NCBI GenBank assembly: GCA_964501185.1
Contig: CAZCRT010000003.1
Location: 24,752-88,751 of the forward strand
Length of the DNA stretch: 64,000 nt
Direction of reading: 5' to 3'
Source of the DNA: an uncultured Bacteroidia bacterium
GTDB taxonomy: Bacteria > CAIWAD01 > BS150m-G50
Shown here: piece by piece, positions 6,378-64,000 of the stretch
Layout of the letters: the number at the start of each line of letters is the position of its first letter
Numbering within the stretch: the first letter of the stretch is position 1
Translations under genes and position numbers: made by a program
Notes under the pieces: generated by a model
The model's database searches: none
What the model was told of the DNA's origin: nothing
What the model saw: only the letters and a program-made list of their open reading frames with translations

Positions 6378-7010
6378 TCAGGTTTTACGCATCAGTATCA
6401 CATCGTTGCCGTGAAATTCCAGTCCGGCCTGCCAGTGATCCGCCAGCCATTTGAAAGACTGTCGGGAGAAGAAACAGACATGAGTGGGATCGTTTTTGTA
6501 GTGCCAGCCGGCAAAAGTATCACGTCCGGTGGAGAGTTTCGTCATCATACCGAGATAACCCTCAGGCCGCAGCAATGACCAGAGCAGATTCAGTTCTGCA
6601 AACGGTACATGCAGGTGTTCTACTACCTCGGTGGCGGTGATGAAGTCGTATTGCCCCTTGAGTAGACCCCGGTTGTCAGCATAAAATGGATCGTATACCT
6701 CCACCTTATGTCCGGCCTCCTCGAGCATAACCGAGAGGGTCGGTCCCGGTCCGCAACCAAAGTCAAGTCCCTGGCTGCCATCTGTCAGCCGCCCCACCAG
6801 CGGTTGCAGCAACCTTCCCAGAAAGTGGCGATAAGCAGGGTCATCCGGATTGTTGCGGTGCAGATCATAGCGGGATTTTTCTTCAGCAGGGGTGAGGTGC
6901 TGTCCGGACGGTACGAATATCAAATGGCAGACAGGGCAGAGATAGTACTCTCGATCGTCCTGGAAGATCTGGTCTTCTGTATTTGTATCACAGAGAGGAC
7001 AACTTAACAT
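6378..7010 (-). CDS. class I SAM-dependent methyltransferase with N-terminal Cys4 zinc ribbon
   Basis: CPLCDT...CPVCHLIF zinc ribbon followed by GLDFGCGPGPTLSVMLEEAGHKVEVYD (motif I). Confidence 0.7.
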   Translation of the reverse strand: MLSCPLCDTNTEDQIFQDDREYYLCPVCHLIFVPSGQHLTPAEEKSRYDLHRNNPDDPAYRHFLGRLLQPLVGRLTDGSQGLDFGCGPGPTLSVMLEEAGHKVEVYDPFYADNRGLLKGQYDFITATEVVEHLHVPFAELNLLWSLLRPEGYLGMMTKLSTGRDTFAGWHYKNDPTHVCFFSRQSFKWLADHWQAGLEFHGNDVILMRKT

Positions 7011-7048
7011 CGGTTTCCTGGTTTCTCTAAAAGTAACGGGAGTAAGTT

Positions 7049-7711
7049 CTAGACTGCGAGAGGTATCACATAAAACAGTACAGCAAAGAAGTGGAGGATA
7101 CTGCCTGCCAGTACAAAGAGGTGCCAGATCGCATGTCCAAAGTGGAGTCTGCGCCAGGCGTAGAAACCGCTTCCGGCTGTGTAAGCCAGCCCTCCCGCGC
7201 CCAGCAGGATCAATCCACCCGGTGCAACATTGGCCAGCATCGGTTTGATGGCAATAATCACCGCCCAGCTCATCCCGAGATAGATGACGACTGAAAGCAA
7301 CCTGTGCTTACGCAGCAGGGTGGCCTGGAATACGACGCCAAGAATCGCCAGGCCCCAGATGACACCAAAGAGAGACCAGCCCCAGGGGCCACGCAGGCTG
7401 ACCAGCATGAATGGAGTATAGGTGCCGGCTATAAGGATGAAGATTGCCGAGTGATCCAGCAGACGGAAGATTTCTTTAGCGCGGGGGTGCTGCACGCCGT
7501 GATACAAAGTAGAAGCCATGTAGAGAAACACCAGCGTTCCACCGAAAACGCTACAGCTGGTAATGTGCCAGGGATCTCCCAGCAACACTGCAAACGCTGT
7601 GAGAATTGCCAGTCCGGCAATCGCCAGGGCAACACCAACACCATGTGTGACGCTGTTGGCAATTTCTTCACCGATAGTGTAGCTGCGTGGGGTATTTTTC
7701 GATGAGGGCAT
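7049..7711 (-). CDS. hemolysin III / PAQR family membrane protein
   Basis: About 7 TM helices; ...EEIANSVTHGVGVALAIAGLAIL... and a His-rich C-terminus. Start chosen at MPSSKN (ATG 7711) with AGGAAAATACT RBS. The longer ORF runs to 7768. Confidence 0.7.
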   Translation of the reverse strand: MPSSKNTPRSYTIGEEIANSVTHGVGVALAIAGLAILTAFAVLLGDPWHITSCSVFGGTLVFLYMASTLYHGVQHPRAKEIFRLLDHSAIFILIAGTYTPFMLVSLRGPWGWSLFGVIWGLAILGVVFQATLLRKHRLLSVVIYLGMSWAVIIAIKPMLANVAPGGLILLGAGGLAYTAGSGFYAWRRLHFGHAIWHLFVLAGSILHFFAVLFYVIPLAV

Positions 7712-7724
7712 AGTATTTTCCTGA

Positions 7725-8846
7725 TTAACCTGATTCAGACAGGGTGGAGTTCGGCCCGGCGGCAGCATACTCCTCCTGCAAACTTGTCATAAGTTCCTGT
7801 ACGGATACGATTTTGTTCACCCGCCAGGCGTTAGCGCCCATGAAAGCAAAACCATCATCGAGCCTGCCATGCTGTGCGTTATTCAACGCCAGGGCAATAC
7901 AATAAGGGGCTTTCCGAAAATCGCAAGTATGCAGGCATTTCCAGGGACACTTGAACGGCTTTTTAATCCCCGCTTCAACATCTTCCAGAAACTGGTTGCG
8001 CAACGCACGCCCGGGCATCCCAACCGGGCTGTCGATGATGGCAATATCTTCCTGCCGACAATCCAGAAAAGCCTGCTTGAACCTGTCGGAAGCATCGCAT
8101 TCATCGGTGGCTACAAAACGGGTAGCCATCTGCACACCCTGCGCTCCCATTTTCAAAGCCCTGTTTATATCGGCACCATCGTAGATCCCACCGGCAGCGA
8201 TAACCGGTATCTGCTTGTTAAAACGTTCCTCAAAGGGCTTGATTACAGGAATAATGTCCAGCACCAGGCGGTCGAGAGAAAACCCGGGGTCCTCGATCTG
8301 CTCTCGTTTGAATCCCAGATGACCGCCGGCTTTCGGTCCTTCCACAACAACTGCATCTGGAACAAGATCGAACTTGTTGGCCCAATGACGGAAGATCAGC
8401 CTGGTGGCGCGGGCGGAAGAGACGATTGGAATTACAGAAGTTTTGTATCGGCGAAATCTGTCAATTGTAACATCCGTGGGTTTGAGCAGTGGCAATCCAG
8501 CACCGAGAAACACCATATCTACCTCTTCCTGCATGGCGACCAGCAACAGATCATCATAATCTGACAACGCCAGCATGATATTGACACCGATGACACCATC
8601 GGTCATCTCCCGGGCACGCTGGATTTCTTTACGGAGCGCCCGTTTGTTTGCTTCGCGGAAATTGGTTTTATAATCCGGTTCCATCATACCTATACCGGCA
8701 GCACCAATAACACCGACACCCCCTGCATTGGCTACGGCAGCAGCCAGTCCCGCCAGCGAAATCATAACACTCATCCCACCCTGTATGATTGGCAGTTTGA
8801 TGTTATGGCTACCGATTTTAAGCCCAGGCATTTTTTTTAAATTCAT
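7725..8846 (-). CDS. nitronate monooxygenase family protein (second paralog, with Cys-rich C-terminal extension)
   Basis: 373 aa; IQGGMSVMISLAGLAAAVANAGGVGVIGAAG and ...VVEGPKAGGHLG..., plus a C-terminal ...KCPWKCLHTCDFRKAPYCIA... Cys cluster. Confidence 0.8.
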   Translation of the reverse strand: MNLKKMPGLKIGSHNIKLPIIQGGMSVMISLAGLAAAVANAGGVGVIGAAGIGMMEPDYKTNFREANKRALRKEIQRAREMTDGVIGVNIMLALSDYDDLLLVAMQEEVDMVFLGAGLPLLKPTDVTIDRFRRYKTSVIPIVSSARATRLIFRHWANKFDLVPDAVVVEGPKAGGHLGFKREQIEDPGFSLDRLVLDIIPVIKPFEERFNKQIPVIAAGGIYDGADINRALKMGAQGVQMATRFVATDECDASDRFKQAFLDCRQEDIAIIDSPVGMPGRALRNQFLEDVEAGIKKPFKCPWKCLHTCDFRKAPYCIALALNNAQHGRLDDGFAFMGANAWRVNKIVSVQELMTSLQEEYAAAGPNSTLSESG

Positions 8847-9122
8847 CCAGCTTTACCTTTACAGACTTTGTTCAAAGCTCCGGCAGAATCAGGATTCGTA
8901 CCGGTCAGCTGTCCGGTCAAAGACAGAACCGTACTTTCCGGATTACCATAGTATTGCATTCGGGGATAACAGCTTTCCTATAGGATTATTTTCATCGACG
9001 ATTCTAATCTTCGTCCCAAATCAGATTTGCAAATGCTCTATAGGCCATCCATTAAGGGTGGGGGTACCTGCGCAAACTACTCATGTCAGGTTAACAAACC
9101 TACATGAATAATTTCTCATAAA

Positions 9123-9944
9123 TCAAACTTCACTCTTCTCCAGCCTGAAAGCAACCGAATAGGGGCGGGTACGGCTGTTGCGCAACAATTTGGTGTTAGT
9201 GGCCAGATGATATCGTTCCGGTGTGATATGGGGTTCCTCAAGATCAGTTACCGTGAAACCGGTTTGCCGGAAAACCTTGAAGTAGTGTGACAGAGGACGA
9301 TGAAACCAGATGAAGTCAGACCTGAAGTGCCCCCAGGGAGGATCAACCCGACGGCTGTTTTCAAAGTAGTTGAAGTTCCACTGGTAGCTGATTCCCACGC
9401 TGTCGGTTTCGATAACATCGGCACCAGCCTGTGGAAAGCAGGGGTGTGAAAATACCACTACTGCAGATCCGCCCGGTTTGAGAACACGATAAAACGCCTC
9501 CACTGTCCTCTCAAGGTCGGCAACATCCATCAGCACATAGTTCGCAACCAGCAGGTCAAATGAAGCGTCCGCCAGCCCCTGAAGCTGCGAGCAGGATTCA
9601 ACCAGGAAATCGATATCCTCACTCCGGTTGCGCGCTATGCTGATCATCCGTTCGGAGAGATCAACCCCGGTAACAGATGCTCCCTTTCGCTGCAGCTGCC
9701 TGGATAGATATCCTGTACCACAACCTGCATCAAGTACCTGCAGGCCTTTAACGTCCCCCGCCAGTTGCCAGAGCACCGGATCAGAGTTGAGGCGGCGGTT
9801 GTTATCACCTTCATTGCCGACCTGCAGATCCCAGTCAACAGCCACGCTGTTCCAGAAATCGCGTATTTCGTCCCTTTTTTCTCGATTCATTCGGATCCAC
9901 CCGGCTGGTTCACTACTCTGCCAGAGCAATATCTTTTCATCCAT
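9123..9944 (-). CDS. class I SAM-dependent methyltransferase
   Basis: VLDAGCGTGYLSRQLQRKGASVTGVDLSERMISIAR (motif I and post-I). Confidence 0.75.
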   Translation of the reverse strand: MDEKILLWQSSEPAGWIRMNREKRDEIRDFWNSVAVDWDLQVGNEGDNNRRLNSDPVLWQLAGDVKGLQVLDAGCGTGYLSRQLQRKGASVTGVDLSERMISIARNRSEDIDFLVESCSQLQGLADASFDLLVANYVLMDVADLERTVEAFYRVLKPGGSAVVVFSHPCFPQAGADVIETDSVGISYQWNFNYFENSRRVDPPWGHFRSDFIWFHRPLSHYFKVFRQTGFTVTDLEEPHITPERYHLATNTKLLRNSRTRPYSVAFRLEKSEV

Positions 9945-19123: not shown

Positions 19124-19714
19124 TTGTTCACAATTGCCAGGGTTAAGTACCATGGTGGCGGTGACTGGTACAGTGATCCCACTTCGCTTCCAAACCTTCT
19201 GCGGTTCATCCGGGATAACACGCCTCTGGCCACTGCTACAGAGGAAGCGGTTGTAGAGCTGACTGACAGCGAACTCTTCAGTTACCCCTATCTCTATCTG
19301 ACCGGTCATGGACGTATCACATTTTCCAGTGAGGAAGTTCTACGTCTGCGCGAATACCTGAGTGCTGGTGGGTTCCTGCATGCTGATGATAACTATGGCC
19401 TCGATAAGTACTTCCGCGATGAGATGAGTCGAGTTTTTCCGGAGCAGGAGTTTCAGGAGCTTCCTTTCGATCATCCGCTTTTTCACTCTCTTTACAGTTT
19501 CCCCGGCGGCTGCCCGAAAGTGCACGAGCATGATGGTAAGCCACCACAGGTACTGGGGCTTTTTCATGAGGGTCGACTCTGCGTTGTGTATACCTATGAA
19601 GCGGATCTCGGTGACGGGTGGGAAGATCCTGAAACGCATAATGATCCAGCCTCCATTCGCCAGCAGGCGTTACGCATGGGCACTAACATTGTCTACTGGA
19701 GATTAAGCAATTGA
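19124..19714 (+). CDS. DUF4159 domain-containing protein
   Basis: ...VKYHGGGDWYSDPTSLPNLLRFI... matches my recollection of DUF4159 proteins, which sit in BatA/MoxR-type loci of FCB bacteria. The ORF-track start is TTG at 19124. The upstream in-frame sequence encodes a hydrophobic, signal-like stretch with no canonical start codon, so the true start is uncertain. Confidence 0.65.
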   Translation: MFTIARVKYHGGGDWYSDPTSLPNLLRFIRDNTPLATATEEAVVELTDSELFSYPYLYLTGHGRITFSSEEVLRLREYLSAGGFLHADDNYGLDKYFRDEMSRVFPEQEFQELPFDHPLFHSLYSFPGGCPKVHEHDGKPPQVLGLFHEGRLCVVYTYEADLGDGWEDPETHNDPASIRQQALRMGTNIVYWRLSN

Positions 19715-22700
19715 AGGTTGACCACCAGTACCGTGATGCAATCGCCCTGTTAGCTGGCTTCCGCAGGCAGCGTCATGTTGCGGGCCTGCAGGTCTGGCTT
19801 CTGGTTACTCTGACCTTTCTGCTTTTTCTGACAACCAGCCTGGTTTTACTGGAACGGATATCTCCCGGTACAATGGCTTCTCGTCATCTGTTCCTGCTTC
19901 TGATCAGCTACAGCTGGCTGGGAGGGGCGGCTCTACTGATTGGACGGGTGCTGTTTCTATTTACAATCCGGCGTCACAACCCTTCAGATCTGAAACTGGC
20001 TCAAGAACTGGGCATACGGGATAAGAACGTTCGCGACAGGTTGCTCAACGCTCTACAGCTGCACTCTTCCGCCGAATCTCACCAACTCTACTCCGCTGAT
20101 CTGATTGATCAGGCTTTAATCAGAATAGTCCCGGAGCTTCCACGTGATACAAAGAAACTGATTTCCCGTCGCAGGCATAAACAGGGTGGCAGACTGTTGT
20201 TGCTTGTAGTAGCGCTGCAACTGCTACTGGTGCTGCTGCAGGGGACACCAATACTGAGCGCATTCGATCGACTGGTTCATTACAGAACCGTTTTCGTTGA
20301 CCCCGATCTGATAACTATTACTCTCGCCCCTGGTGATACAACCCTCATCCGCGGAGATAACCTGCTGATTGAGGCTTTCCCGGCAGGAACAGTTATACCG
20401 GAGGAGCTGGAGTTGACCCTGACCAGAGACGGGCAGCAGTTTCTCTATCCGCTTCGCAAAGGAGGCCAGGGCTTCTCGCTGCTGCTGGAACGAATAAACG
20501 CTCCGTTTATGTATCATGTCAGTGGAGAGCGCCTGCTATCTGACAGCGGTCATGTCAAACTGCTGGATCTCCCGGTAATCACCGATTTTCAGGCCAATCT
20601 TACTTATCCCGCCTACACCGGTTTGCTGCCGCTTCAGCTGGAACACAATATTGGCAGTTTCAGTGCTGTTTTCAGCACCTCCGTGGCTTTCACGCTGAAG
20701 ACCTCACAAGAGGCTGATGTGCAACTGGTGCTGGATAATGGTGAAGCCATTGAAATGACACCTGGTGACAGCTGTTATCAGGCACAACTTGTTGTACGGG
20801 AAGACCGGAGCTACCATTTCCATCTTGTTGATCAGAACGGTCTTTCCAATAGCGATCCTATCGTGTGGCACATCACTGCGGTTGAAGACAGTCATCCATT
20901 ATTGAACCTGTCTTTTCCCCGCGATGGCGATCAGGTGACAAAAGATGTTCAGTTTCTTGGCAGTGGCGTTGATGATTATGGTATCACACGTTTCCAGCTG
21001 CGTTACAGACTTGTCCCACCGTTTCTGCAGGCAGAATACGCTGACTTCAACCTGACGGATGCTACTGCTGAAGAGCTGGCACAATGGGATCGTCTGGAGT
21101 TGCCTTTTGAAAAACTGGATGTCGGGGAGGCGCTGCTGGATTACACCTGGAACCTGGGGAAGACCAACGCGCTGCCTGAAGATGAAATCCTGCTTTTTGT
21201 GATACTATGGGACAATGATACAGTTTCCGGCCCCAAGTGGACACGCTCACCACTTCTGCGCCTTAACCTGCCCGGAACTGCCGCGCTGTACGACGCTGTA
21301 CAATCCAGTGAGGAAGCGGAACTGGAGCGGACCAGGGATATTATTGAACGTTCTCGTGAGAACCTGGAGCAGCTGGAACAGATGGTAACCGAGTTGCAGG
21401 TTGATCCGGAGCAGATGAACTGGGAAATGCAGCGACAGATTGAGAGCATCGCCCGGGAACAACTCGAGATGGCAGAAAGCGCTGCTGCCATGCAGGAGAA
21501 CCTGGAACAGCTGCAGCAATCGCTTGAGGAAAACCAGCTCTTCAGTGACGAGGTGATTGAGAAAATGCAGCAGCTCAGCGAACTGTTGCAGGAGCTGATG
21601 ACCGAAGAGATGAAGTCTCTGCTGGAGCAGTTGCAGGAGGGTAATGAACCAACCCCGGAGGAGTTACAGGCCGCCATGGAGCAGGCCAAACAGGAGCTGG
21701 ATGCCTTCCTGGAACAGATGGAGAGATTGCTCTCCATACTGGAACAGCTACAGATGGAGCAGAAGCTGGAGGAGTTGGCCCGCCTGGCCGAGGAGCTGCG
21801 ACAACAGCAGGAAGAACTCAACGAACAGGCTGCCTCCGACTCACCTCCTGACGACCTGTCAGAGCAGCAGGAGAAACTGGCTGCTGCGACAGAGGAGTTG
21901 AATAAGGAGATACAACAGGCAAAGGAGGAGTTTGGAGAAAACCCGCACTTCCCCGCCGAGCAGATGGATGCTGCCTCCGATTTCATGGAAGAGCAGGCTC
22001 TCGCTGAGCAGATGATGGCCAACGCCGGGCAACTGGAGATCGATCCATCACAATCACAACCTGCCGGGGAGAATATTGCCGGTGATCTGGGGCAGCTGCA
22101 GCAAATGCTTCAGGACGCAAGTGATATGGCCGGTCAGAACGCAATGGCAGAGCTGAATGATGCAATTGATCGTGTAATACACCGACTGCTGATCATCTCG
22201 GAACTGTTTGAAGTACAGAGGGATGATGTGACAGGACTGCGGCCGGAAAATGCAAGTTTTGGCCGTTGTGCCTTTCAGCAACTCTCACTGACTCGCGCCT
22301 TACTGATATCGATAGAAGATGTTTCTGATCTGATGATGGAGAGTTTTTTCATCTCCCGTTCTGTGCTGACATACCTCCAGAAAGCTGCTGCAAAATCTGA
22401 ATTGAGTATTCAGGATTTCGAGGAAAGACGTATGCACTCCCTTGCGGGAAACGAGGAACAGATCATGGGGTTTGTTAACCGGGCAATTTACTTACTCATG
22501 CAGGACCAGGAGAGTATGAACGCCTCTTCCTCATCAACAGGTTTTGAGGAAATGATGGAGCAGCTGATGCAGTGCTCTTCCGATCAACAGAGCCTCAACT
22601 CACAATGTAATAAGCTCTTATCAGCTCAGCAGGGAACCTGCCAGAAACCGATGGGTGTTACCCTCTCCGATATGGCGAGCGAACAGGCGAGATTACGGCA

Positions 22701-23127
22701 GCAGATGGAACAGCTGGCTCAACAGGTAAGCGAAATGCCCGGTGGCCGAAAACCCATGGGCGATCTGGGCGAGATTGCCCGGCAGATGCAGGAGGTTGAA
22801 GAGCAGCTGCAGGATAGTCAACTCACGGAACGCACTCTGAAGCTGCAGGAACGGATACTGAATCAGCTGCTTGATTCGCAGCGTTCCATAAGGGAAAGAG
22901 AACGAAGCCAGGAGCGGGAATCGAGAACCGCTACACTGATCGAGCGCAGCTCCCCGGAAGAACTGATGCTTGAGATGTCAGCGGATGCGCTGCGCCAGGA
23001 AATGATTCGCGCCCTGCGCGAGGGTTATTCCCGCGAGTATCTGGAGTTGATACGTGACTATTATCAGCACCTTATGATGCTGGAAGAGAACACCAGAGAA
23101 ACCCGGAGCATAGAAGAAACCCCTTAA
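19711..23127 (+). CDS. large double-TM-anchored coiled-coil protein (DUF4175-like)
   Basis: 1138 aa. Two N-terminal TM helices, a ~450-aa beta-rich region, then a ~450-aa E/Q/L/M-rich low-complexity coiled coil (EQLEQMVTELQ..., LEQLQQSLEENQL...). TTG start overlaps the DUF4159 stop (TTGA), suggesting translational coupling. DUF4175 assignment is from memory of the DUF4159-DUF4175 gene pairing. Confidence 0.6.
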   Translation: MKVDHQYRDAIALLAGFRRQRHVAGLQVWLLVTLTFLLFLTTSLVLLERISPGTMASRHLFLLLISYSWLGGAALLIGRVLFLFTIRRHNPSDLKLAQELGIRDKNVRDRLLNALQLHSSAESHQLYSADLIDQALIRIVPELPRDTKKLISRRRHKQGGRLLLLVVALQLLLVLLQGTPILSAFDRLVHYRTVFVDPDLITITLAPGDTTLIRGDNLLIEAFPAGTVIPEELELTLTRDGQQFLYPLRKGGQGFSLLLERINAPFMYHVSGERLLSDSGHVKLLDLPVITDFQANLTYPAYTGLLPLQLEHNIGSFSAVFSTSVAFTLKTSQEADVQLVLDNGEAIEMTPGDSCYQAQLVVREDRSYHFHLVDQNGLSNSDPIVWHITAVEDSHPLLNLSFPRDGDQVTKDVQFLGSGVDDYGITRFQLRYRLVPPFLQAEYADFNLTDATAEELAQWDRLELPFEKLDVGEALLDYTWNLGKTNALPEDEILLFVILWDNDTVSGPKWTRSPLLRLNLPGTAALYDAVQSSEEAELERTRDIIERSRENLEQLEQMVTELQVDPEQMNWEMQRQIESIAREQLEMAESAAAMQENLEQLQQSLEENQLFSDEVIEKMQQLSELLQELMTEEMKSLLEQLQEGNEPTPEELQAAMEQAKQELDAFLEQMERLLSILEQLQMEQKLEELARLAEELRQQQEELNEQAASDSPPDDLSEQQEKLAAATEELNKEIQQAKEEFGENPHFPAEQMDAASDFMEEQALAEQMMANAGQLEIDPSQSQPAGENIAGDLGQLQQMLQDASDMAGQNAMAELNDAIDRVIHRLLIISELFEVQRDDVTGLRPENASFGRCAFQQLSLTRALLISIEDVSDLMMESFFISRSVLTYLQKAAAKSELSIQDFEERRMHSLAGNEEQIMGFVNRAIYLLMQDQESMNASSSSTGFEEMMEQLMQCSSDQQSLNSQCNKLLSAQQGTCQKPMGVTLSDMASEQARLRQQMEQLAQQVSEMPGGRKPMGDLGEIARQMQEVEEQLQDSQLTERTLKLQERILNQLLDSQRSIRERERSQERESRTATLIERSSPEELMLEMSADALRQEMIRALREGYSREYLELIRDYYQHLMMLEENTRETRSIEETP

Positions 23128-56458: not shown

Positions 56459-56650
56459 GGACCTCTCCCGTTCCTGCACCTGCTTCGTTGCTTCCATCTG
56501 ACCTCTTCCGGTTTGAAGCATCACCTCAGCTTATGTGAGCAATTTACCACAGGATAATTGTCGCTCCAATCATCACATTTGTTTTCCATGCACTGGAGCC
56601 GGGCGAAATATATATTGAGAGTTACAAAATCACAATCCAGCAGGTGTGTC

Positions 56651-59329
56651 ATGCGATCGTTCTTCTCTCTGTTACTATCGGTGATCCTGTCATTATCGGC
56701 AGCAGGCGGACAGTTGTTACCTGATTCTCTTATCTGCTTCATTGATTCAGCCTGTGCTGAAGCGGGTCTTACTATCCGGGAACTCGGGTTTGAAAAGAAA
56801 TGGGTGGAAGATGACACTTTCCGTCTGGCTCTTATCGATCAGATTCTGGATGAACCGTTGTCGCTGGCTTCTACCGGTGATCAGTTCAACCGTGTGTTTT
56901 CAGACAGCCTCACTCCGGGTCAGTATCTGCCCACACTAACCGACATGCTCGGTTTACCAGTTAACCAGCTCACCTCGCCCCCTGTACCGGTCAGCCTTAA
57001 TACGTTCTCAAAACAACCATCTCTTCCATCCGGAGTGCCCCGGGAAAACAACTGCCCGCAATCTGAATTACCACCAGGTATGAATCTGTTTCTCAGCCAT
57101 GTTGCTCACGCCGACAGCCTGTTGGCGCTTTTCTACAATCAGCTTTCAGTAGAGGACCGCCGTCACATACTATACCAGTCTGTCGCCACCTGGAGTGAAG
57201 AAAACGGTGAGAATTACGAGGGTTTACTCTATTCACCTCCTCCAGAAAGGGACTCGCTTTATGCTGATGTCGGATATGACCGGCTCTATGATATTGCAGC
57301 ACGCACTGACCTGACTCCACTGTTTCAGGCATTTCAGCACTGTGTCAGCGGTGTGGAAGCTATCAGTCGTGATCCGGGTGATTATGAAACACCCTGTCGC
57401 TACAGTACGCCCTGGGGCAGTATCCGGGTAGGTTCTTTTACTGACGATCGCCACACAGAACAGGACTACCTGCTGTTGATAGATCCCGGTGGCAATGATT
57501 GCTATTCTGATGGAATGCCACGCGCAGTAGGTGATGAGACACATCCGGCCATGCAATTCTGTATTGATCTCTCCGGCGATGACCTGTATCACGCTGCCGG
57601 TACAGCTGTCAGCCAGGGTTCGGCAGTTCTTGGAATTGCCATTCTCAGTGATCTCGATGGACGTGACACATACCTGGCTGACATGCACACACAGGGAAGC
57701 GGGCTCTTCGGCGGTGGACTGTTGTTCGATGGTGGTGGTGACGATAGCTACCGGGCTGATTACTTCGCACAGGGCGCCGCACACTTCGGAATCGGGTTGC
57801 TTTTCGATGATGAGGGTGACGATTTGTATCACGCTGCAGCCTGGTGCCAGGGTATGGGGGGCACCTTTGGCAGTGGTACGCTGGTAGACCGCCGGGGTGA
57901 TGATCGTTACAGCGCGGGTGGCGCCTACCTGCACAAGCCTCTGAGGCCACAGGACTATCGCTCCTTCGCTCAGGGTTTCGCCATGGGTTATCGTGATCGT
58001 GCCGGTGGTGGAATCGGTCTTTTGATCGACGGCGATGGTAATGACTTCTACAACGCGGAAATTTATGCACAGGGGTGCAGCTACTGGTACTCGCTGGGCA
58101 TACTGATCGATCAACATGGCAATGATCACTATCAGGCCACCCAGTACGCACAGGGAGCAGGTATACACCTCTCCTGTGGCCTGCTGGCAGATTGCGCCGG
58201 CGATGACCATTATTATTCACGCTTCGGGCCATCACAGGGAACGGGCCACGACTACAGTGTCGGTATGCTGCTGGACAGGCAGGGTGATGACAACTACCAG
58301 GTTTCAGGTGGTATCGGAGTTTCTCTGACAAATTCTTTTGGTATGCTGCTGGATGGTAGCGGCAATGATATGTACAGTTTCAGTGAGGTCTGGGGGCTGG
58401 GTGGCGTGCGTCACGGCCGCGGGTATGCAGGTGCCGCCCTGTTTCTCGATCTGGGCGGGGTGGATGTTTATCCGGCCGCATCTCCCGCAGGTAATGACAC
58501 ACTATGGCATCAACACGATTATGGTATAGGCTGGGACCGGCAGGAAAGCGGTACCCCGGGCGCTACATCCAGCCAACCTGCGGCCGACTCGCTGCAGAAC
58601 GGAAAGACTATGCCTCTCGATTCCCTCTGGAACATAGCGGCGGAATGGGGTGTAGGAGAAAACCGGGTTCGTGTACCACAGGCGCGTAGAGCGCTGGCGG
58701 CCCGGGTTGATTCAGTAGTACCTTTTCTGCGGGAGGAGCGAAAACTGGACAGCACCTCCGGGCTGGTGCGCCGTGCTCTGAAGGTGATCGTAGATGCTGA
58801 ACCGGATGCCATGGCTCCGCTTCTGCTTGAGACACTGACAGACAGCTCCCGGGATGCTCGTATTCAGGCGTTGGGATTACTGGCTGATACCTTGTTTGTG
58901 ACACATGCCACCAGAGTTGCGACCAGAATAGACTCACTAAGCGGTCGGGAACTTCGAACTTCACTACTCACCCTGGGGACCATGCGCAGTCTGAAACACC
59001 TCCCTCTGATCGCAGGCTATCTGGATTCTGAACAGGAACGTTTACGACTTACAGCTGTACGCGCTCTTGCCGCAACAGGTAGCGAAGAAGCTTTGCCGTA
59101 TTTGATAATGGGACTTTATGACCCCATGTTTACTGTTCGCTCAGGTGTGATCGATCGATTGGGGCGTTTTCCACTCAGGAACATCCTGGGGGAGCTTCCA
59201 CCGGATGTGCCACAATATGAGCAACGGCTTGTGCTGGAGAAATGCCTGTTGCGTGCAGAAGATGAAGGTGGGTGGTGGATGAGATGGCGGATCAGAAAAC
59301 GGCTGCGGGCACTGGGTGGAGGGGCATAG
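56651..59329 (+). CDS. secreted repeat protein: ~11 Gly/Asp-rich 28-aa repeats plus C-terminal HEAT/PBS-lyase-like repeats
   Basis: Signal peptide MRSFFSLLLSVILSLSAAGG. Repeats with consensus GDDxYxAxxxAQGxGxxxGxGLLxDxxG (e.g. GNDFYNAEIYAQGCSYWYSLGILIDQHGNDHYQATQYAQGAG...). C-terminus ...ARIQALGLLAD...LTAVRALAATGSEEALPYLIMGLYDPMFTVRSGVIDRLG is HEAT-like. The ORF-track start at 56558 is TTG and less likely. Confidence 0.6.
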   Translation: MRSFFSLLLSVILSLSAAGGQLLPDSLICFIDSACAEAGLTIRELGFEKKWVEDDTFRLALIDQILDEPLSLASTGDQFNRVFSDSLTPGQYLPTLTDMLGLPVNQLTSPPVPVSLNTFSKQPSLPSGVPRENNCPQSELPPGMNLFLSHVAHADSLLALFYNQLSVEDRRHILYQSVATWSEENGENYEGLLYSPPPERDSLYADVGYDRLYDIAARTDLTPLFQAFQHCVSGVEAISRDPGDYETPCRYSTPWGSIRVGSFTDDRHTEQDYLLLIDPGGNDCYSDGMPRAVGDETHPAMQFCIDLSGDDLYHAAGTAVSQGSAVLGIAILSDLDGRDTYLADMHTQGSGLFGGGLLFDGGGDDSYRADYFAQGAAHFGIGLLFDDEGDDLYHAAAWCQGMGGTFGSGTLVDRRGDDRYSAGGAYLHKPLRPQDYRSFAQGFAMGYRDRAGGGIGLLIDGDGNDFYNAEIYAQGCSYWYSLGILIDQHGNDHYQATQYAQGAGIHLSCGLLADCAGDDHYYSRFGPSQGTGHDYSVGMLLDRQGDDNYQVSGGIGVSLTNSFGMLLDGSGNDMYSFSEVWGLGGVRHGRGYAGAALFLDLGGVDVYPAASPAGNDTLWHQHDYGIGWDRQESGTPGATSSQPAADSLQNGKTMPLDSLWNIAAEWGVGENRVRVPQARRALAARVDSVVPFLREERKLDSTSGLVRRALKVIVDAEPDAMAPLLLETLTDSSRDARIQALGLLADTLFVTHATRVATRIDSLSGRELRTSLLTLGTMRSLKHLPLIAGYLDSEQERLRLTAVRALAATGSEEALPYLIMGLYDPMFTVRSGVIDRLGRFPLRNILGELPPDVPQYEQRLVLEKCLLRAEDEGGWWMRWRIRKRLRALGGGA

Positions 59330-60323
59330 TTTACTAACGATTAAGAAACAGGATTCGGCTCAATGAGTCAAAGTACATAGTACTCTTAGATTCGTGAACA
59401 AATTTATTGATTAACAACTACACGGATTGGATTGGCAGTTGAATCTTCAACATCCCGGCCTACAGCATCTTGGAAGTCGCTTTCAGACCAGAACGCTTCT
59501 CTTGTACTCTCCTGCACAAACTCTATGTCGGCGCGCTGAGTGCAATACTCGATAACCTGCTCCGGATACTGGTGCTCAAATATCCTGAATGCTTTCGGCG
59601 TTCCAAGCCCTAACCTGTCCTTTAGATACCTTCTCCCAATTTTGTATTCTAGCCTTGTGTAGTTGTATGATGCAAAACGATGGTCATCAAGATGGTTTGG
59701 AGCATATCTCTTGTCGTAGACAGACAACCGGAGACCAGATTTACCGCGCTTGCCGATGACATATCCCGTCATATTTAAAAGCTTAGGTTCTCCAATATAC
59801 CAAACAGTCTCCTCAAGTAAGTCGCTAGATTTATGCATGCTAAACTCATGGGTGTTCAGGAAAAGTGGAATGTTGCATGCTAGGTCAATTCTAGATACTG
59901 TCATTTTTGTGAAATCAAAATCGTCTTTGTATGACCCATAGATAGCATTCAGCACATGGTATATCTGTGTTAGATTTTCTGTGAATTCATCAGAATCGAA
60001 ATAAAGCCCCTTAATATGCAGGATCAAGCCCCCATGATGGAAGTGCAAATGAAAGAACGATTCTAGGCTTAAATGGGGCTTGTTTATCATCCGCATCCTA
60101 ATGGTATCGTTGAAGAGCTTATCAATGATGTACTTCTTGACCCTTGATTTAGCCTCCGGATCTTTCATTTCCGCTTTGGCAAATGGAAGCCACAATTGAA
60201 AGTAATCTATGAAGTATTTTCTCATGTCAGTGGTATCTGGTTGTTAACTAACCATTTCTCCGGGGTTCTACCTAACAACGCTTTGATTTTTACAACTGAG
60301 TCCTCGTGGCATCACCTGCTTTT
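59330..60323. mobile_element. ~1 kb low-GC islet carrying an orphan Rep_trans-like gene (possible remnant of an integrated rolling-circle element)
   Basis: Visibly AT-richer than both flanks. A single gene lies between the end of the HEAT-repeat gene (59329) and the dnaG stop (60324). A 13-bp palindrome AGTACATAGTACT lies in the left flank (~59371-59383). Confidence 0.35.
59404..60225 (-). CDS. Rep_trans-family (pT181 RepC / CTXphi RstA-like) rolling-circle replication initiator, orphan
   Basis: ...SRIDLACNIP... resembles the RepC TRLDLAFDF motif. ...YVIGKRGKSGLRLSVYDKRYA... resembles RepC YFGVRDSNRFIRIYNKKQE. ...YNYTRLEYKIGRRYLKD resembles RepC HLWRVEIELKRD. RepC sequence recalled from memory, not searched. 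Confidence 0.55.
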   Translation of the reverse strand: MRKYFIDYFQLWLPFAKAEMKDPEAKSRVKKYIIDKLFNDTIRMRMINKPHLSLESFFHLHFHHGGLILHIKGLYFDSDEFTENLTQIYHVLNAIYGSYKDDFDFTKMTVSRIDLACNIPLFLNTHEFSMHKSSDLLEETVWYIGEPKLLNMTGYVIGKRGKSGLRLSVYDKRYAPNHLDDHRFASYNYTRLEYKIGRRYLKDRLGLGTPKAFRIFEHQYPEQVIEYCTQRADIEFVQESTREAFWSESDFQDAVGRDVEDSTANPIRVVVNQ

Positions 60324-62168
60324 CTAAGTGGCTTTCTTCTTCCCTGTCAACAGCTCTCTGCGCTGTTTATCAAGTTTCTGAATCTGCAGCAGTAGTTCAT
60401 CCCTTTCCTTAGAATTCATTGTTTTATCTTCACGCTTTCTTTCTATCTCCTTTATCTCTTCTCCAATGAAGTGGCCCCTCAGTACTAGCAGCTGATCTCC
60501 GAGTTCATGATGATCGTTTGCTTGCGGTGGTTGATAAAGGATATCCAATAAATACTTCTGGGTTCTTGTTTTCGAGAATTCAGTGTGAATCGTTTCCTCA
60601 TTGATACCATGGTTTTGATTCAACTCCATGAGTTTTATCAACGCATCACGCATCCTTTCATGAAGAAACCATCGTTGTGGCTCTGCCTGCTCTATATCAG
60701 ATCGCAACTCTGGGTTACTCATGTATATCTCAAGAATTCGCGTGGCGGGGATATGCTTCCTGCCTGAAGGAGATACATTATCATCGGAGGATCCGACTTC
60801 TCCTTCTACTGTAGTGGTTTTGGTTCGAACCATTTTTCGTAGATGTTCTGTCAGCTCATCCAGCGGCAAACCTGAAATCCGTTTTAACTGCTGCACGCTC
60901 TGCTGCTGTTCAAACACATCATCAATCTTAATGATGGTTGTTAATAGTGACTTCACAAAATCACTGAACTGCCTCTTGGATGCATCTGGATTTTCTCTAC
61001 GAAAACGATTTATACGCCAATCGAATATGTCCTGCCCGCTTTGCAGCAGATTTTCAAAATCATCTTCACCACGACTCCGAATAAACGAATCCGGGTCCTC
61101 ACCTGATGGCAATTGTACAACGGTTACTTCCAGCCCGGCTGTCAGCATTAAATCAGCCCCCCGGGAAGCAGCGTCACTACCGGCAACATCAGCGTCATAA
61201 AGCAGTGTCACCCTGTCGGTGTAGCGCTTGAGTAGAAAGGCCTGCTCGCGAGTCAGCGCAGTTCCCATGGAAGCGACCGCATTGCGCACATCAAACTGGT
61301 AGAGGGCAATCACATCCATGTACCCTTCCACCATCAGTGCGAAACCAGCTTTGCGAATTCCTCCCCGGTTCTGGTACAACCCGTAAAGTTCCCGGCTTTT
61401 GTGATACAGAGGATGTTCGGCTGAGTTTATGTACTTCGGCGCATTGTCATCAGCACCGGGCAACACCCTCCCCCCGAAAGCAATTACTTTTCCTGACAGG
61501 TTCACCAGTGGAAACATCAGCCGGTCACGAAAAACATCATAAAGCGTATCACGCTTGCTGCGCGCGAACAGCATTGATTTAAGCAGCAGCTGTTCACCGA
61601 ACTTATCCTGACGAACTCGCTTGAGGAGGCCGTCCCACCCGGCGGGTGCCAGCCCGATCTGAAAATCCGCCAGTGTGGCGTCATCTATACCACGTCCACG
61701 GACATAATCAGCAGTGTTGTTTTCTGATTTGCCGCTTTCATCGCTGTCACCTGTATCATCTGCACTCATCACCCCCTGCAATTGCTCGCTGTAGAACCGT
61801 CCCGCCAGGGCGTAGAGATTTCGCAGCAGTTCCTTTTCTCCGCGTTGCTCCGGTGATGGCCCCTGTCCACGCTGATAGCGAACCGTTACACCAGCCTGCC
61901 CGGCAAGAAACTCTATTGCCTCAGGATAACTCATCCCTTCGTATTGCATCACAAAACTGAAAACGTCGCCGGAAGCGCCACAGCCGAAGCACTTGAATAT
62001 CCGCTTGTCCGGGGACACCATGAATGAGGGGGTTTTTTCCTCGTGGAAGGGGCAGCGCCCCTTGAGGTTGGAGCCGGAGCGCTTTAACTCGAGATAGCGC
62101 GATATCAACTGACCGATGTCCAGCTGCTCTCTTATCTGATCGATGACTTCCGATTCTATGTACGGCAT
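60324..62168 (-). CDS. dnaG: DNA primase
   Basis: N-terminal zinc ribbon (CPFHEEKTPSF...CFGCGASGD), TOPRIM region (...LMVEGYMDVIAL...), 614 aa. Confidence 0.95.
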   Translation of the reverse strand: MPYIESEVIDQIREQLDIGQLISRYLELKRSGSNLKGRCPFHEEKTPSFMVSPDKRIFKCFGCGASGDVFSFVMQYEGMSYPEAIEFLAGQAGVTVRYQRGQGPSPEQRGEKELLRNLYALAGRFYSEQLQGVMSADDTGDSDESGKSENNTADYVRGRGIDDATLADFQIGLAPAGWDGLLKRVRQDKFGEQLLLKSMLFARSKRDTLYDVFRDRLMFPLVNLSGKVIAFGGRVLPGADDNAPKYINSAEHPLYHKSRELYGLYQNRGGIRKAGFALMVEGYMDVIALYQFDVRNAVASMGTALTREQAFLLKRYTDRVTLLYDADVAGSDAASRGADLMLTAGLEVTVVQLPSGEDPDSFIRSRGEDDFENLLQSGQDIFDWRINRFRRENPDASKRQFSDFVKSLLTTIIKIDDVFEQQQSVQQLKRISGLPLDELTEHLRKMVRTKTTTVEGEVGSSDDNVSPSGRKHIPATRILEIYMSNPELRSDIEQAEPQRWFLHERMRDALIKLMELNQNHGINEETIHTEFSKTRTQKYLLDILYQPPQANDHHELGDQLLVLRGHFIGEEIKEIERKREDKTMNSKERDELLLQIQKLDKQRRELLTGKKKAT

Positions 62169-62197: not shown

Positions 62198-64000
62198 TTA
62201 CTCATCGATGCGAAGTGAAACCACCGTGATGCCATCGCCACCCTCCGGCAATGTACCTCGCCGATACTGTTTCACCTGGCGCATATGTTTCAAGTACTTG
62301 TGGATGTTTTCCCGCAATACACCGGTACCCTTTCCATGCAACAGTGTCACTTCCTGCAAGTCGTTTAGAACGCAGTTGTCCAGGTAGGCGTCAATCTGCT
62401 CCAGGGCTTCTTCTACAGTCATTCCCCGCAGGTCCAGAGTCGGCAGACTGCGTGTTGAATAGCTTCCACCAGCTCCACGACTGCGTTTCCTCTGATCCGG
62501 GGGAGCAGCTTCACCGGTGACATCACTCAGGGCGAAAGTCATTTTAAACGGTCCGGATTTACCAACCAGTGTGCCGGCATCACCGTCAAGTGATATGATC
62601 TGAACCGGTTCGGTAATATCAGAGATACGCACCCAATCACCTTTATCAAAACCGGGCTCATTTTTCGCTCGCTCACGACGACGGAGCTTCGATAGTCTCT
62701 GTTCGGTCTGTTTTCGTCGGGTGGTCAGCTGCTCCCGTGCCGCCCTGACCACTTCCGTATCTGCGTCTTTTGCACGTATCTCGCGAATTGTGTTTTCCAC
62801 TTCCCGGTTGGACTCCTCCAGAATTCGCTTCGACTCTTCAAGCGCCTGGCGCTTGATGTCACGTGTCTCACGCCGCACACCTTTCAACTTCTTCCTGTAT
62901 TCTTCGACCTGTGCTTCCAGTTCTATTTCACGCGCTTTTACACGGGTGTTCTTGGTTTGATAAATCTGCATACGGCGACGCAGAGAGGTGATTAATTTTT
63001 CCAGAGACTTCTGTTCGGTACCCATGAAAAAGCGAGAACGATCAACGATAAATTTGGGTGCACCCATCCGTTCAGCTATCTCCAGCGCGTAACTCGATCC
63101 GGGCACTTCCGGTATAAACCTGAAAGTCGGCTCAATCCTCTCCTCGGCGAACGACATTGACCCGTTGCTGATGTGGGGCTCCTCGTGGGCGTAGGCCTTC
63201 AAACCACCCAGATGTGTGGTGATAATTGTGAGACCCGGACTCTGCAGTAACCGCTCCATAATAGCCTTCGCAAGGGCTGTGCCAGCTTCCGGATCAGTTC
63301 CCGAACCCATTTCATCTATCAGAAACAGGGCGTTGTCACGGGAGTGCCTCACCATTCGCATGATGCGCTGCATGTGCGAGGAGAAGGTGGAGAGATCATT
63401 ATCGATCGATTGCTCATCACCAATGTCAGTGTAGACCGCTACGAAAAATGGGATACGGCTTTCTGAAGACGCTGGTATCGGCAATCCGCAGCGGGCCATA
63501 AGCGCCAGCAAACCTATCGTTTTCAGGGCAACTGTCTTTCCACCAGCATTTGGACCACTGATCAACAGCATACGTGTGCGTCCGCCAATCTCCAGATCGA
63601 GCGGCACCACTTTCTGCTTTTCGAGCAACAGCGGATGCCTGGCCTGTTTGAGTACAAGTTCCATCTTCTCTGTTACAACCGGAGCACATCCTTTGAGATG
63701 CCTTCCGTAGCGAGCCTTCGCGCTTAAGAAATCAAGCCTGTGGAGATGCGCTACCGCGACTTCGATCATCGGCAGGTGCTCTCTCAGCTTCTCTGTAAAC
63801 TCCCTCAGCAGGCGTGCTATTTCCTGCTGCTCCTGCCCCAACATCCGCTGCAGCTGGTTCCCGGCTTCTACAGCCACTTTCGGTTCCACGAAAACAGTTG
63901 CACCGCTGTCAGACTGATCAATAATGATTCCCTGCACCCTGCTCTGCATATTCTCCCGCACCGGGATTGTCAGGTGACCATTGCGATACGTGACCAGGTT
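62198..64000 (-). CDS. mutS2: endonuclease MutS2 (partial; N-terminus lies beyond the window end)
   Basis: Walker A ISGPNAGGKTVALKTIG. C-terminal Smr domain (...LDLRGMTVEEALEQIDAYLD...LLHGKGTGVLRENIHKYL...). The frame stays open past 63961 to the window edge. Confidence 0.9.
   Translation of the reverse strand, partial: NLVTYRNGHLTIPVRENMQSRVQGIIIDQSDSGATVFVEPKVAVEAGNQLQRMLGQEQQEIARLLREFTEKLREHLPMIEVAVAHLHRLDFLSAKARYGRHLKGCAPVVTEKMELVLKQARHPLLLEKQKVVPLDLEIGGRTRMLLISGPNAGGKTVALKTIGLLALMARCGLPIPASSESRIPFFVAVYTDIGDEQSIDNDLSTFSSHMQRIMRMVRHSRDNALFLIDEMGSGTDPEAGTALAKAIMERLLQSPGLTIITTHLGGLKAYAHEEPHISNGSMSFAEERIEPTFRFIPEVPGSSYALEIAERMGAPKFIVDRSRFFMGTEQKSLEKLITSLRRRMQIYQTKNTRVKAREIELEAQVEEYRKKLKGVRRETRDIKRQALEESKRILEESNREVENTIREIRAKDADTEVVRAAREQLTTRRKQTEQRLSKLRRRERAKNEPGFDKGDWVRISDITEPVQIISLDGDAGTLVGKSGPFKMTFALSDVTGEAAPPDQRKRSRGAGGSYSTRSLPTLDLRGMTVEEALEQIDAYLDNCVLNDLQEVTLLHGKGTGVLRENIHKYLKHMRQVKQYRRGTLPEGGDGITVVSLRIDE

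Follow-up and report, generated by a model that had tools for sequence, protein, structure and literature searches.

The islet downstream of dnaG

The window analysed here, a stretch of 64,000 nucleotides (64 kb) from contig CAZCRT010000003.1, carries a 994-bp islet of low guanine-cytosine (GC) content at positions 59330..60323, located between the stop codon of a HEAT-repeat protein gene and that of dnaG. The islet holds a single gene of 273 codons (59404..60225, minus strand, ATG to TAA), predicted to encode a divergent tyrosine nicking-joining enzyme of the Rep_trans superfamily. Its right boundary is formed by dnaG (60324..62168, minus strand; Pfam Zn_ribbon_DnaG, DNAG_N and Toprim) and its left boundary by the gene of a 923-aa HEAT-repeat protein (56558..59329, plus strand; Pfam HEAT_2), both lying outside the element; these domain assignments were taken from the identical public locus L001. 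Noncoding DNA in the islet totals 172 nt. It is divided between an upstream spacer of 98 nt from the dnaG stop to the ATG (60226..60323, minus strand), the last ~17 nt of which are common with a homolog, and a downstream spacer of 74 nt from the end of the open reading frame (ORF) to the convergent HEAT-gene stop (59330..59403, minus strand), which contains a short palindrome. The 273-aa ORF, dnaG and mutS2 (62198..63961) are all co-oriented. Beside the 273-aa gene, the islet has neither a second gene nor an integrase, and searches for tRNAs, Rfam families and tandem repeats found none. The locus is thus organised as described in a previous sequence-only reading, with one gene downstream of mutS2-dnaG (98 nt after dnaG) and no integrase, coat or second gene.

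The public call of this gene (P0001) is a protein of 228 aa which starts at Met46 and lacks the N′ motif FIDY (window 60076-60225). Since the N-terminus is conserved among homologs, we consider the 273-aa ORF to be the correct one. This correction of a truncated public gene call restores the N′ motif with its putative ligand D7.

Composition sets the islet apart from its surroundings. Its GC content is 0.413 compared to 0.511 for the whole window, about 4 standard deviations (sd) below the mean, and is the minimum among all 994-nt segments of the window (mean 0.511, sd 0.024). The flanks, which the sequence-only reading had estimated by eye in the mid-50s%, are indeed richer in GC than the islet, with values of about 0.50-0.54 that are slightly lower than this estimate. 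The islet is also an outlier in tetranucleotide usage, with a distance from the window mean of 0.0374 (0.0242 ± 0.0033 for all segments). Its tetranucleotide profile showed a correlation of 0.62-0.68 with marine contigs of 28-35% GC that carry homologs of the gene and of only 0.18 with its own window, while the profile of the whole window showed a correlation of 0.88 with its closest relative.

To find relatives, DnaG was scanned across 185,579 species genomes. Only one moderately close relative was obtained, a Candidatus Delongbacteria metagenome-assembled genome (L010), all other matches being at or below about 43% identity. Comparative power for the lineage of the window is therefore very limited. 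The two DnaG proteins are 70% identical overall (81% over the N-terminal 430 aa and 42% over the C-terminal 184 aa) and synteny is kept in L010 for mutS2, dnaG, the HEAT gene, iPGM, DAHP synthase and GFO/IDH. In this genome, the stop of dnaG (6628) and that of the syntenic HEAT-gene ortholog (6631-9261) are 2 bp apart, showing that the islet is absent; a comparison of the dnaG 3′ junction in related genomes had been proposed in the sequence-only reading. It is present in all three contigs of the organism of the window (L001-L003). Composition, together with the patchy distribution of homologs, points to an insertion in the lineage of the window, and both a foreign origin of the islet and its insertion at the junction of dnaG and the HEAT gene are well supported.

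Low GC continues about 600 nt past the islet into the 3′ end of dnaG (60324-60880, GC 0.39-0.45); in L010, GC stays at 0.51-0.56 in the 3′ end of dnaG. The divergent low-GC C-terminus of DnaG could result from fast evolution of the helicase-binding domain. Alternatively, the 3′ end of the gene could have been replaced along with the islet.

A divergent Rep_trans/Phage_CRI family and its predicted active site

Enzymes of the Rep_trans/Phage_CRI superfamily have a TATA-binding protein (TBP)-like fold and depend on divalent metal; their catalytic tyrosine nicks one DNA strand and stays attached to its 5′ phosphate, after which the enzyme can close the nick again. The 273-aa protein is a member of this superfamily by homology, fold and active site. 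As a single sequence, it gave nothing usable in Pfam, NCBIfam, PHROGs or Protein Data Bank (PDB) sequences, and in a Pfam scan neither PF02486, even at E ≤ 10, nor PF05144 was matched. Relatives are rare: 4 were found among 5.8 billion clustered proteins and 23 in 1.84 billion representatives by an exhaustive HMMER scan. Among these, a distant member (P0026) approached the Pfam Rep_trans model with an E-value of 9e-4 and 19.3 bits, below the cut-off of 29.6, and the best family member against Phage_CRI (P0023) reached an E-value of 0.11 and 12.6 bits, below the cut-off of 21.7. The Rep_trans membership proposed in the sequence-only reading stands at the level of the superfamily, by profile-profile comparison, fold and residue mapping, while the direct match to PF02486 or PF05144 fails.

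The family hidden Markov model (HMM) aligned to pT181 RepC, the sequence of which was reconstructed from NC_001393, with the motifs in register (SRlDlA/TRLDLA, YDKR/YNKK and RlEYe). In the last of these the RepC counterpart is RVEIE. The same register was obtained by hhalign against a shallow set of near-identical RepC sequences, with a probability of 31%. We then used a diverse reference of 10 annotated Rep_trans initiators of about 25-30% mutual identity, from plasmids of Lactobacillus, Enterococcus, Staphylococcus, Priestia and Leuconostoc. Against this reference, hhalign with the 24-sequence family profile gave a probability of 94.8% and an E-value of 5.3e-8 over 108 columns, including motifs I-IV. 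The family profile had no match among PDB sequences.

An AlphaFold2 model built from the 24-sequence alignment replaced a poor model built from 5 sequences (predicted local distance difference test score, pLDDT, 46). Structure prediction and fold search indicated a crescent-shaped TBP-like catalytic fold, and Rep_trans structures were ranked first by two independent methods of searching with the predicted fold, with template modelling (TM) scores to RepDE of about 0.42. In a viral structure library, the best matches were initiators of Inoviridae, including one labelled ‘GST REP’ and A0A345MNV4, a protein which carries PF02486 (PMC13107129).

In RepDE, the nucleophile is Y191, with R189, K193 and G180 nearby (Carr et al., PMC4797284). 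The metal ligands are D46, D142 and E214, residues R140, D142, A144, D146, R212 and E214 are strictly conserved in Rep_trans, and R189 was reported to be critical for religation (PMC4797284). The corresponding motifs of the 273-aa protein, all encoded on the minus strand, are co-linear with these. Motif I, SRIDLACN (aa 111-118, 59872..59895), aligns R112 with R140 of RepDE, D114 with the metal ligand D142 and A116 with A144. Motif II, TGYVIGKRG (59743..59769), aligns G158 with G180 and R160 with R182; its T-to-G spacing is one residue longer than in the canonical T/SxY/ExG. In motif III, YDKRYA (59701..59718), Y170 is the predicted nucleophile (Y191 of RepDE) and K172 corresponds to K193; the model places Y170 within a predicted strand (165-171). 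Motif IV, YTRLE (59647..59661), contains R191 and the metal ligand E193, counterparts of R212 and E214. The three Rep_trans-like motifs noticed in the sequence-only reading are present as described (the second, TGYVIGKRG...VYDKR, spanning aa 153-173 and the third, RLEYKIGR, aa 191-198), and conservation within the family is highest in these blocks. Residues R112, D114, N118, G158, Y170, K172, R191 and E193 are invariant in 23/23 family sequences.

The third metal ligand is putatively provided by the N′ motif FIDY (60202..60213, minus strand), with D7 in the place of D46 of RepDE and D9 of RepSTK1. This residue is conserved in 19 of the 20 family members having the N′ region, and permissive hhalign paired it, with low confidence, with the invariant N′ Asp of the Rep_trans reference. 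As judged by sequence, D7 is probably the counterpart of D46.

Three canonical positions differ. D146 of RepDE is replaced by N118, which is itself invariant (23/23); R189 is replaced by S168, with Arg or Lys in distant family members; and the acidic residue of YxKxxE is replaced by A175, with Ser, Asp or Glu in relatives. In view of these differences and of scores below the curated Pfam thresholds, the protein is treated here as a new divergent family within the superfamily.

Homolog loci and the search for element ends

A metagenome scan for the close subfamily gave 11 loci, encoding proteins of 35-70% identity to the window protein. In every locus with enough flank the homolog stands alone in DNA that is low in GC and looks chromosomal. 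Its neighbours vary: L094 has lipoproteins and a type I methylase, L097 an AlbA_2/Schlafen protein, L098 an HNH-HIT fusion together with an XRE regulator, L101 an ABC-F ATPase as well as an esterase, and L005 a membrane protein. Pairwise comparisons located the limits of homology close to the ORF. In the pair L100/L101, the gene has 94% nucleotide identity and homology is confined to -3 to +17 nt of the ORF, the flanks being unrelated. Homology between L101 and L102 breaks 6 nt upstream of the gene, L098 and L099 (99.4% identical) part about 39 nt past the stop, and between the window and L094 (70% identical) homology detected by blastn extends from -17 to the end of the ORF. The 10-mer AGAGTACTAT of the 74-nt spacer is also found in the downstream flank of L094. 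No relatives of the 273-aa protein were found by a scan of IMG/VR nor by tblastn of annotated phage and plasmid collections. Taken together, the comparisons give good support to the conclusion that the close homologs are lone genes which have changed place among unrelated chromosomal sites in units little longer than the ORF.

The ratio of nonsynonymous to synonymous substitution rates (dN/dS) was 0.32 for L100/L101 and about 0.10 for L005/L097, so that the gene is maintained by selection. That the islet gene encodes an intact, selected tyrosine nickase-ligase of the Rep_trans superfamily is well supported as a prediction.

A distant branch of the family occurs in a different setting. Members P0023, P0027 and P0028 are found on a small replicon for which three independent assemblies (L090-L092) are exact rotations with k-mer terminal overlaps, corresponding to a circle of 5171 bp and 33% GC. 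It carries about 14 small co-directional genes, P0028 included, and none of these had a Pfam or PHROG match. This circle may be an undescribed small single-stranded DNA (ssDNA) phage or plasmid. Through P0028, the family is tied to rolling-circle replicons. The circle also encodes a 272-aa protein and a 129-aa protein in which an N-terminus rich in Arg, Lys and Tyr precedes a hydrophobic helix.

We searched for repeats that could mark the ends of the element. In L096, a contig of 1076 bp whose homolog protein is 56% identical to the window protein, the perfect 20-nt direct repeat AATGATTAACCGCATCATAT is located at 158-177 and 1023-1042, i.e. at -27 and +23 of the gene. Shuffles gave at most 9 nt, so that this repeat is far above chance; it may be the trace of an att-like site or of a target duplication. 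In the window, the gene lies between two imperfect copies of a 14-nt direct repeat, read here on the minus strand and placed at offsets close to those in L096: the downstream copy, AATCGTTAGTAAAC (59329..59342), abuts the HEAT-gene stop and the upstream copy, AATGGTTAGTTAAC (60243..60256), starts 31 nt before the ATG. The only two GTTAGTWAAC sites in the 64 kb are both in this pair of repeats, the pair having been chosen post hoc. It represents a possible element end.

Other repeats were discarded. The 18-mer TGGGTAAATGAAAAGAAT of L100 (315-332, 1297-1311 and 1514-1531) occurs twice in perfect form and once as a 14/15 match. It sits inside two different neighbouring ORFs, in differing reading frames and beyond the block shared with L101; being inside neighbouring coding sequences and outside the common block, it was rejected as an element end. 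The flanking repeats of L099/L098 were rejected as Shine-Dalgarno-like AGGAT motifs.

Searches for known cis elements in and around the islet remained at background level. The perfect 5-3-5 palindrome AGTACATAGTACT pointed out in the sequence-only reading does exist (59372-59384). Nevertheless, its frequency is that of chance, such palindromes occurring 1.0 times per kb window-wide and being expected 1.1 times in shuffles of the islet, and it was rejected as an origin or nick site. No hairpin of a Rep_trans-type origin, which could have supplied the inverted repeat of a nick site, was found in the flanks, hairpins being no more stable than in shuffles (z -1.3 and +0.5 for the 98-nt spacer, -1.1 and 0.1 for the 74-nt spacer). 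The suggestion of a XerCD/dif-type integration was not borne out either: the best dif-like matches in the islet (16-17/28) are not above the window-wide background maximum when compared to the dif sites of E. coli, B. subtilis and V. cholerae, references which may not match the dif of the host lineage itself. The ATAA-N6-TTAT core is absent from the 64-kb window, and k-mers common to homolog flanks were at shuffle level only. A model based on repetitive extragenic palindromes and their associated tyrosine transposases (RAYT/REP-like) was rejected, there being no dispersed copies of the flank sequences in the window. The first 45 nt of the ORF are conserved, but synonymous positions vary; a cis-element was therefore rejected and this conservation attributed to the peptide MRxYFIDYxQ. 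Promoter and terminator scans of the islet were at or below chance. Since no promoter or terminator lies between dnaG and the 273-aa gene, the latter is probably transcribed by read-through from dnaG. Finally, PADLOC models had no match for the window protein or for 5 of the 6 relatives tested, the remaining one (P0023) giving a non-significant hit to PD-Lambda-5_B (E 0.065).

Two neighbourhoods of the homologs deserve mention in their own right. At 8777-10018 of L094, about 1.8 kb from the Rep-like gene, a 413-aa ORF resembles by eye a type I restriction-modification methylase; with 54-58% GC in a contig of about 30% GC, it corresponds to a separate horizontal acquisition. In L098, the homolog is directly followed (1195-2166) by a 323-aa HNH endonuclease-HIT fusion and then by a 782-aa protein without Pfam match and the XRE-type regulator, an arrangement which looks like a defence island.

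Origin of the gene and relation to known elements

On balance, we lean towards a functional, horizontally acquired, compact mobile gene for a divergent Rep_trans nickase, originating from a low-GC marine donor. The moving unit would be a small cassette that exceeds the ORF only slightly, and most likely the enzyme itself would contribute to this movement by nicking and joining short sites close to the ORF ends or within them. Several observations weigh against such a reading. Only one copy per genome was seen, which leaves transposition-like activity conjectural, and recombination could have carried the gene along passively. Neither a nick site, an origin-like hairpin, a conserved terminal sequence nor a target-site duplication was found in our searches. 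The 14-nt repeat pair of the window matches at 12/14 positions, a marginal level reached by about 4% of flank shuffles, and the flanking repeats of the window and L096 are only a lead because most homolog loci have no such repeat. With a single comparison genome, the polarity of the indel depends on composition and on the patchy distribution of low-GC homologs. In addition, because three positions (N118, S168 and A175) depart from the canonical active site, the chemistry could differ from that of canonical Rep_trans enzymes.

The sequence-only reading had considered the gene as the possible scar of an inovirus-like or plasmid-like element. In this scenario, a rolling-circle plasmid or filamentous phage would have integrated downstream of dnaG, possibly through XerCD at a dif-like site, and lost everything except rep, which would persist as decaying cargo. 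The relationship of the family to replicon initiators, the distant member on the 5.17-kb circle, the Inoviridae initiators as best viral structural neighbours and the foreign composition are all consistent with it. However, the 172 noncoding nt contain no further element gene or fragment, and neither a dif-like site above background nor an origin-like hairpin was found. The ORF is complete, its catalytic residues are intact and invariant, its relatives are under purifying selection, and none of them turned up in IMG/VR or in the phage and plasmid collections. Moreover, at least 5 other distinct loci carry the lone gene, and independent decay that always spares only rep is unlikely. We therefore regard a decayed scar as improbable and as a weaker explanation than a mobile cassette. 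A different possibility is a passenger acquired through ordinary recombination and kept for its benefit to the cell, i.e. an exapted nuclease which might nick the origins of incoming rolling-circle plasmids or ssDNA phages, or supply initiator or relaxase function in trans to a separate element located elsewhere in the genome. Purifying selection on a single-copy gene would fit, as would the defence-type neighbours in L098 (HNH-HIT, XRE), L097 (Schlafen/AlbA_2) and L094 (type I methylase) and the fact that Rep_trans enzymes double as MOBT relaxases of integrative and conjugative elements (ICEs) and integrative and mobilizable elements (IMEs) (PMC5714925). Nevertheless, such neighbours are inconsistent between loci (ABC-F ATPase and esterase in L101, dnaG in the window), no PADLOC model matched, the protein would lack the N-terminal helix-turn-helix domain typical of MOBT relaxases, and neither a partner element nor dispersed flank copies are visible in the 64-kb window. 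We retain host service as a minority possibility that deserves attention, and likewise the domesticated Rep that was the other suggestion of the sequence-only reading.

A non-nuclease TBP-fold protein with a superficial resemblance of motifs and a role such as DNA binding appears highly improbable. This could account for the failure of the single sequence in Pfam, NCBIfam and PHROG, the absence of PDB sequence matches with the family profile and the modest TM-scores to RepDE (only about 0.42). It is difficult to reconcile with the 94.8% probability of the profile-profile alignment, in which the motifs fall into the correct register, with Rep_trans structures top-ranked by two independent methods and with family-invariant residues that coincide with the Rep_trans catalytic Tyr and Lys, the two Arg and the Asp/Glu ligands.

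A stronger version of the mobile-cassette reading would be a new minimal class of mobile element of about 0.8-1 kb, whose only gene, that of the Rep_trans nickase, would supply the transposase or homing function, with DNA cut and rejoined at the ORF ends or within them. By analogy, such an element would be to Rep_trans enzymes what IS200/IS605, IS91 and Helitron elements are to HUH enzymes. We consider a new class of element doubtful at present.

The comparison with known systems places the window gene between several of them. It resembles Rep_trans plasmid initiators (pT181 RepC/RepD and RepSTK1 of pSTK1) by the co-linear motifs I-IV and probably N′, the catalytic residues and a similar size (267 aa for RepSTK1 and 273 aa for the window protein). 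In contrast to these, it is chromosomal and solitary, without origin hairpin or partner genes, and its host is Delongbacteria-like by DnaG whereas the plasmid hosts are Bacillota. The likeness to initiators of filamentous phages (CTXphi RstA, M13 gpII) lies in the Inoviridae proteins that are its best viral structural matches and in the distant member encoded by the small 5.17-kb circle, which is transcribed in one direction only; unlike in these phages, no coat, Zot-like ATPase or other phage gene is found beside the window gene or its close homologs, and neither a dif nor an att site was found. MOBT relaxases such as Tn916 Orf20, ICEBs1 NicK and RelSt3 are likewise chromosomally integrated Rep_trans-family enzymes. 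They carry an N-terminal helix-turn-helix (HTH) domain and reside in large elements with an integrase and coupling or transfer genes, whereas the window insert is about 1 kb with one gene and its flanks are syntenic housekeeping genes common with L010. These relaxases nick the transfer origin of ICEs and IMEs (PMC5714925, PMC6499999).

With HUH transposons (IS91/ISCR, Helitrons, IS200/IS605) and free-standing homing-endonuclease genes, the window gene would share a functional analogy only: a lone nuclease gene in a compact islet between conserved genes, of patchy distribution and foreign composition, without inverted terminal repeats or obvious target duplications. Unlike these elements, it has no multiple copies, defined ends, or demonstrated transposition or homing, and its fold and catalytic motif (TBP-fold Rep_trans) are unrelated to those of HUH enzymes.

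The reviews consulted place Rep_trans enzymes in plasmids, in filamentous phages and as relaxases of ICEs and IMEs, and credit rolling-circle transposition to HUH enzymes only (PMC5714925, PMC13595969). We found no transposon built on a TBP-fold Rep_trans enzyme in the literature consulted. As only plasmid, phage and ICE/IME settings are given in these reviews, a solitary, cassette-like Rep_trans gene represents a new setting. If its own nicking drives its movement, this would be a second enzyme fold for rolling-circle or single-strand transposition. The family is in any case a new sequence family missed by current Pfam, NCBIfam and PHROG models. It is connected to an uncharacterised 5.17-kb circular replicon, and one of its hosts appears, by DnaG, to be affiliated with the candidate phylum Delongbacteria, where mobile elements are barely studied.

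The second-strongest tetranucleotide outlier of the window is located at 21000-22400, within the gene of a 1138-aa protein (19711..23127), where it encodes a coiled-coil segment rich in Glu, Gln and Leu. Foreign DNA was rejected for this segment, in which GC is normal and the deviation reflects a coiled-coil coding bias.

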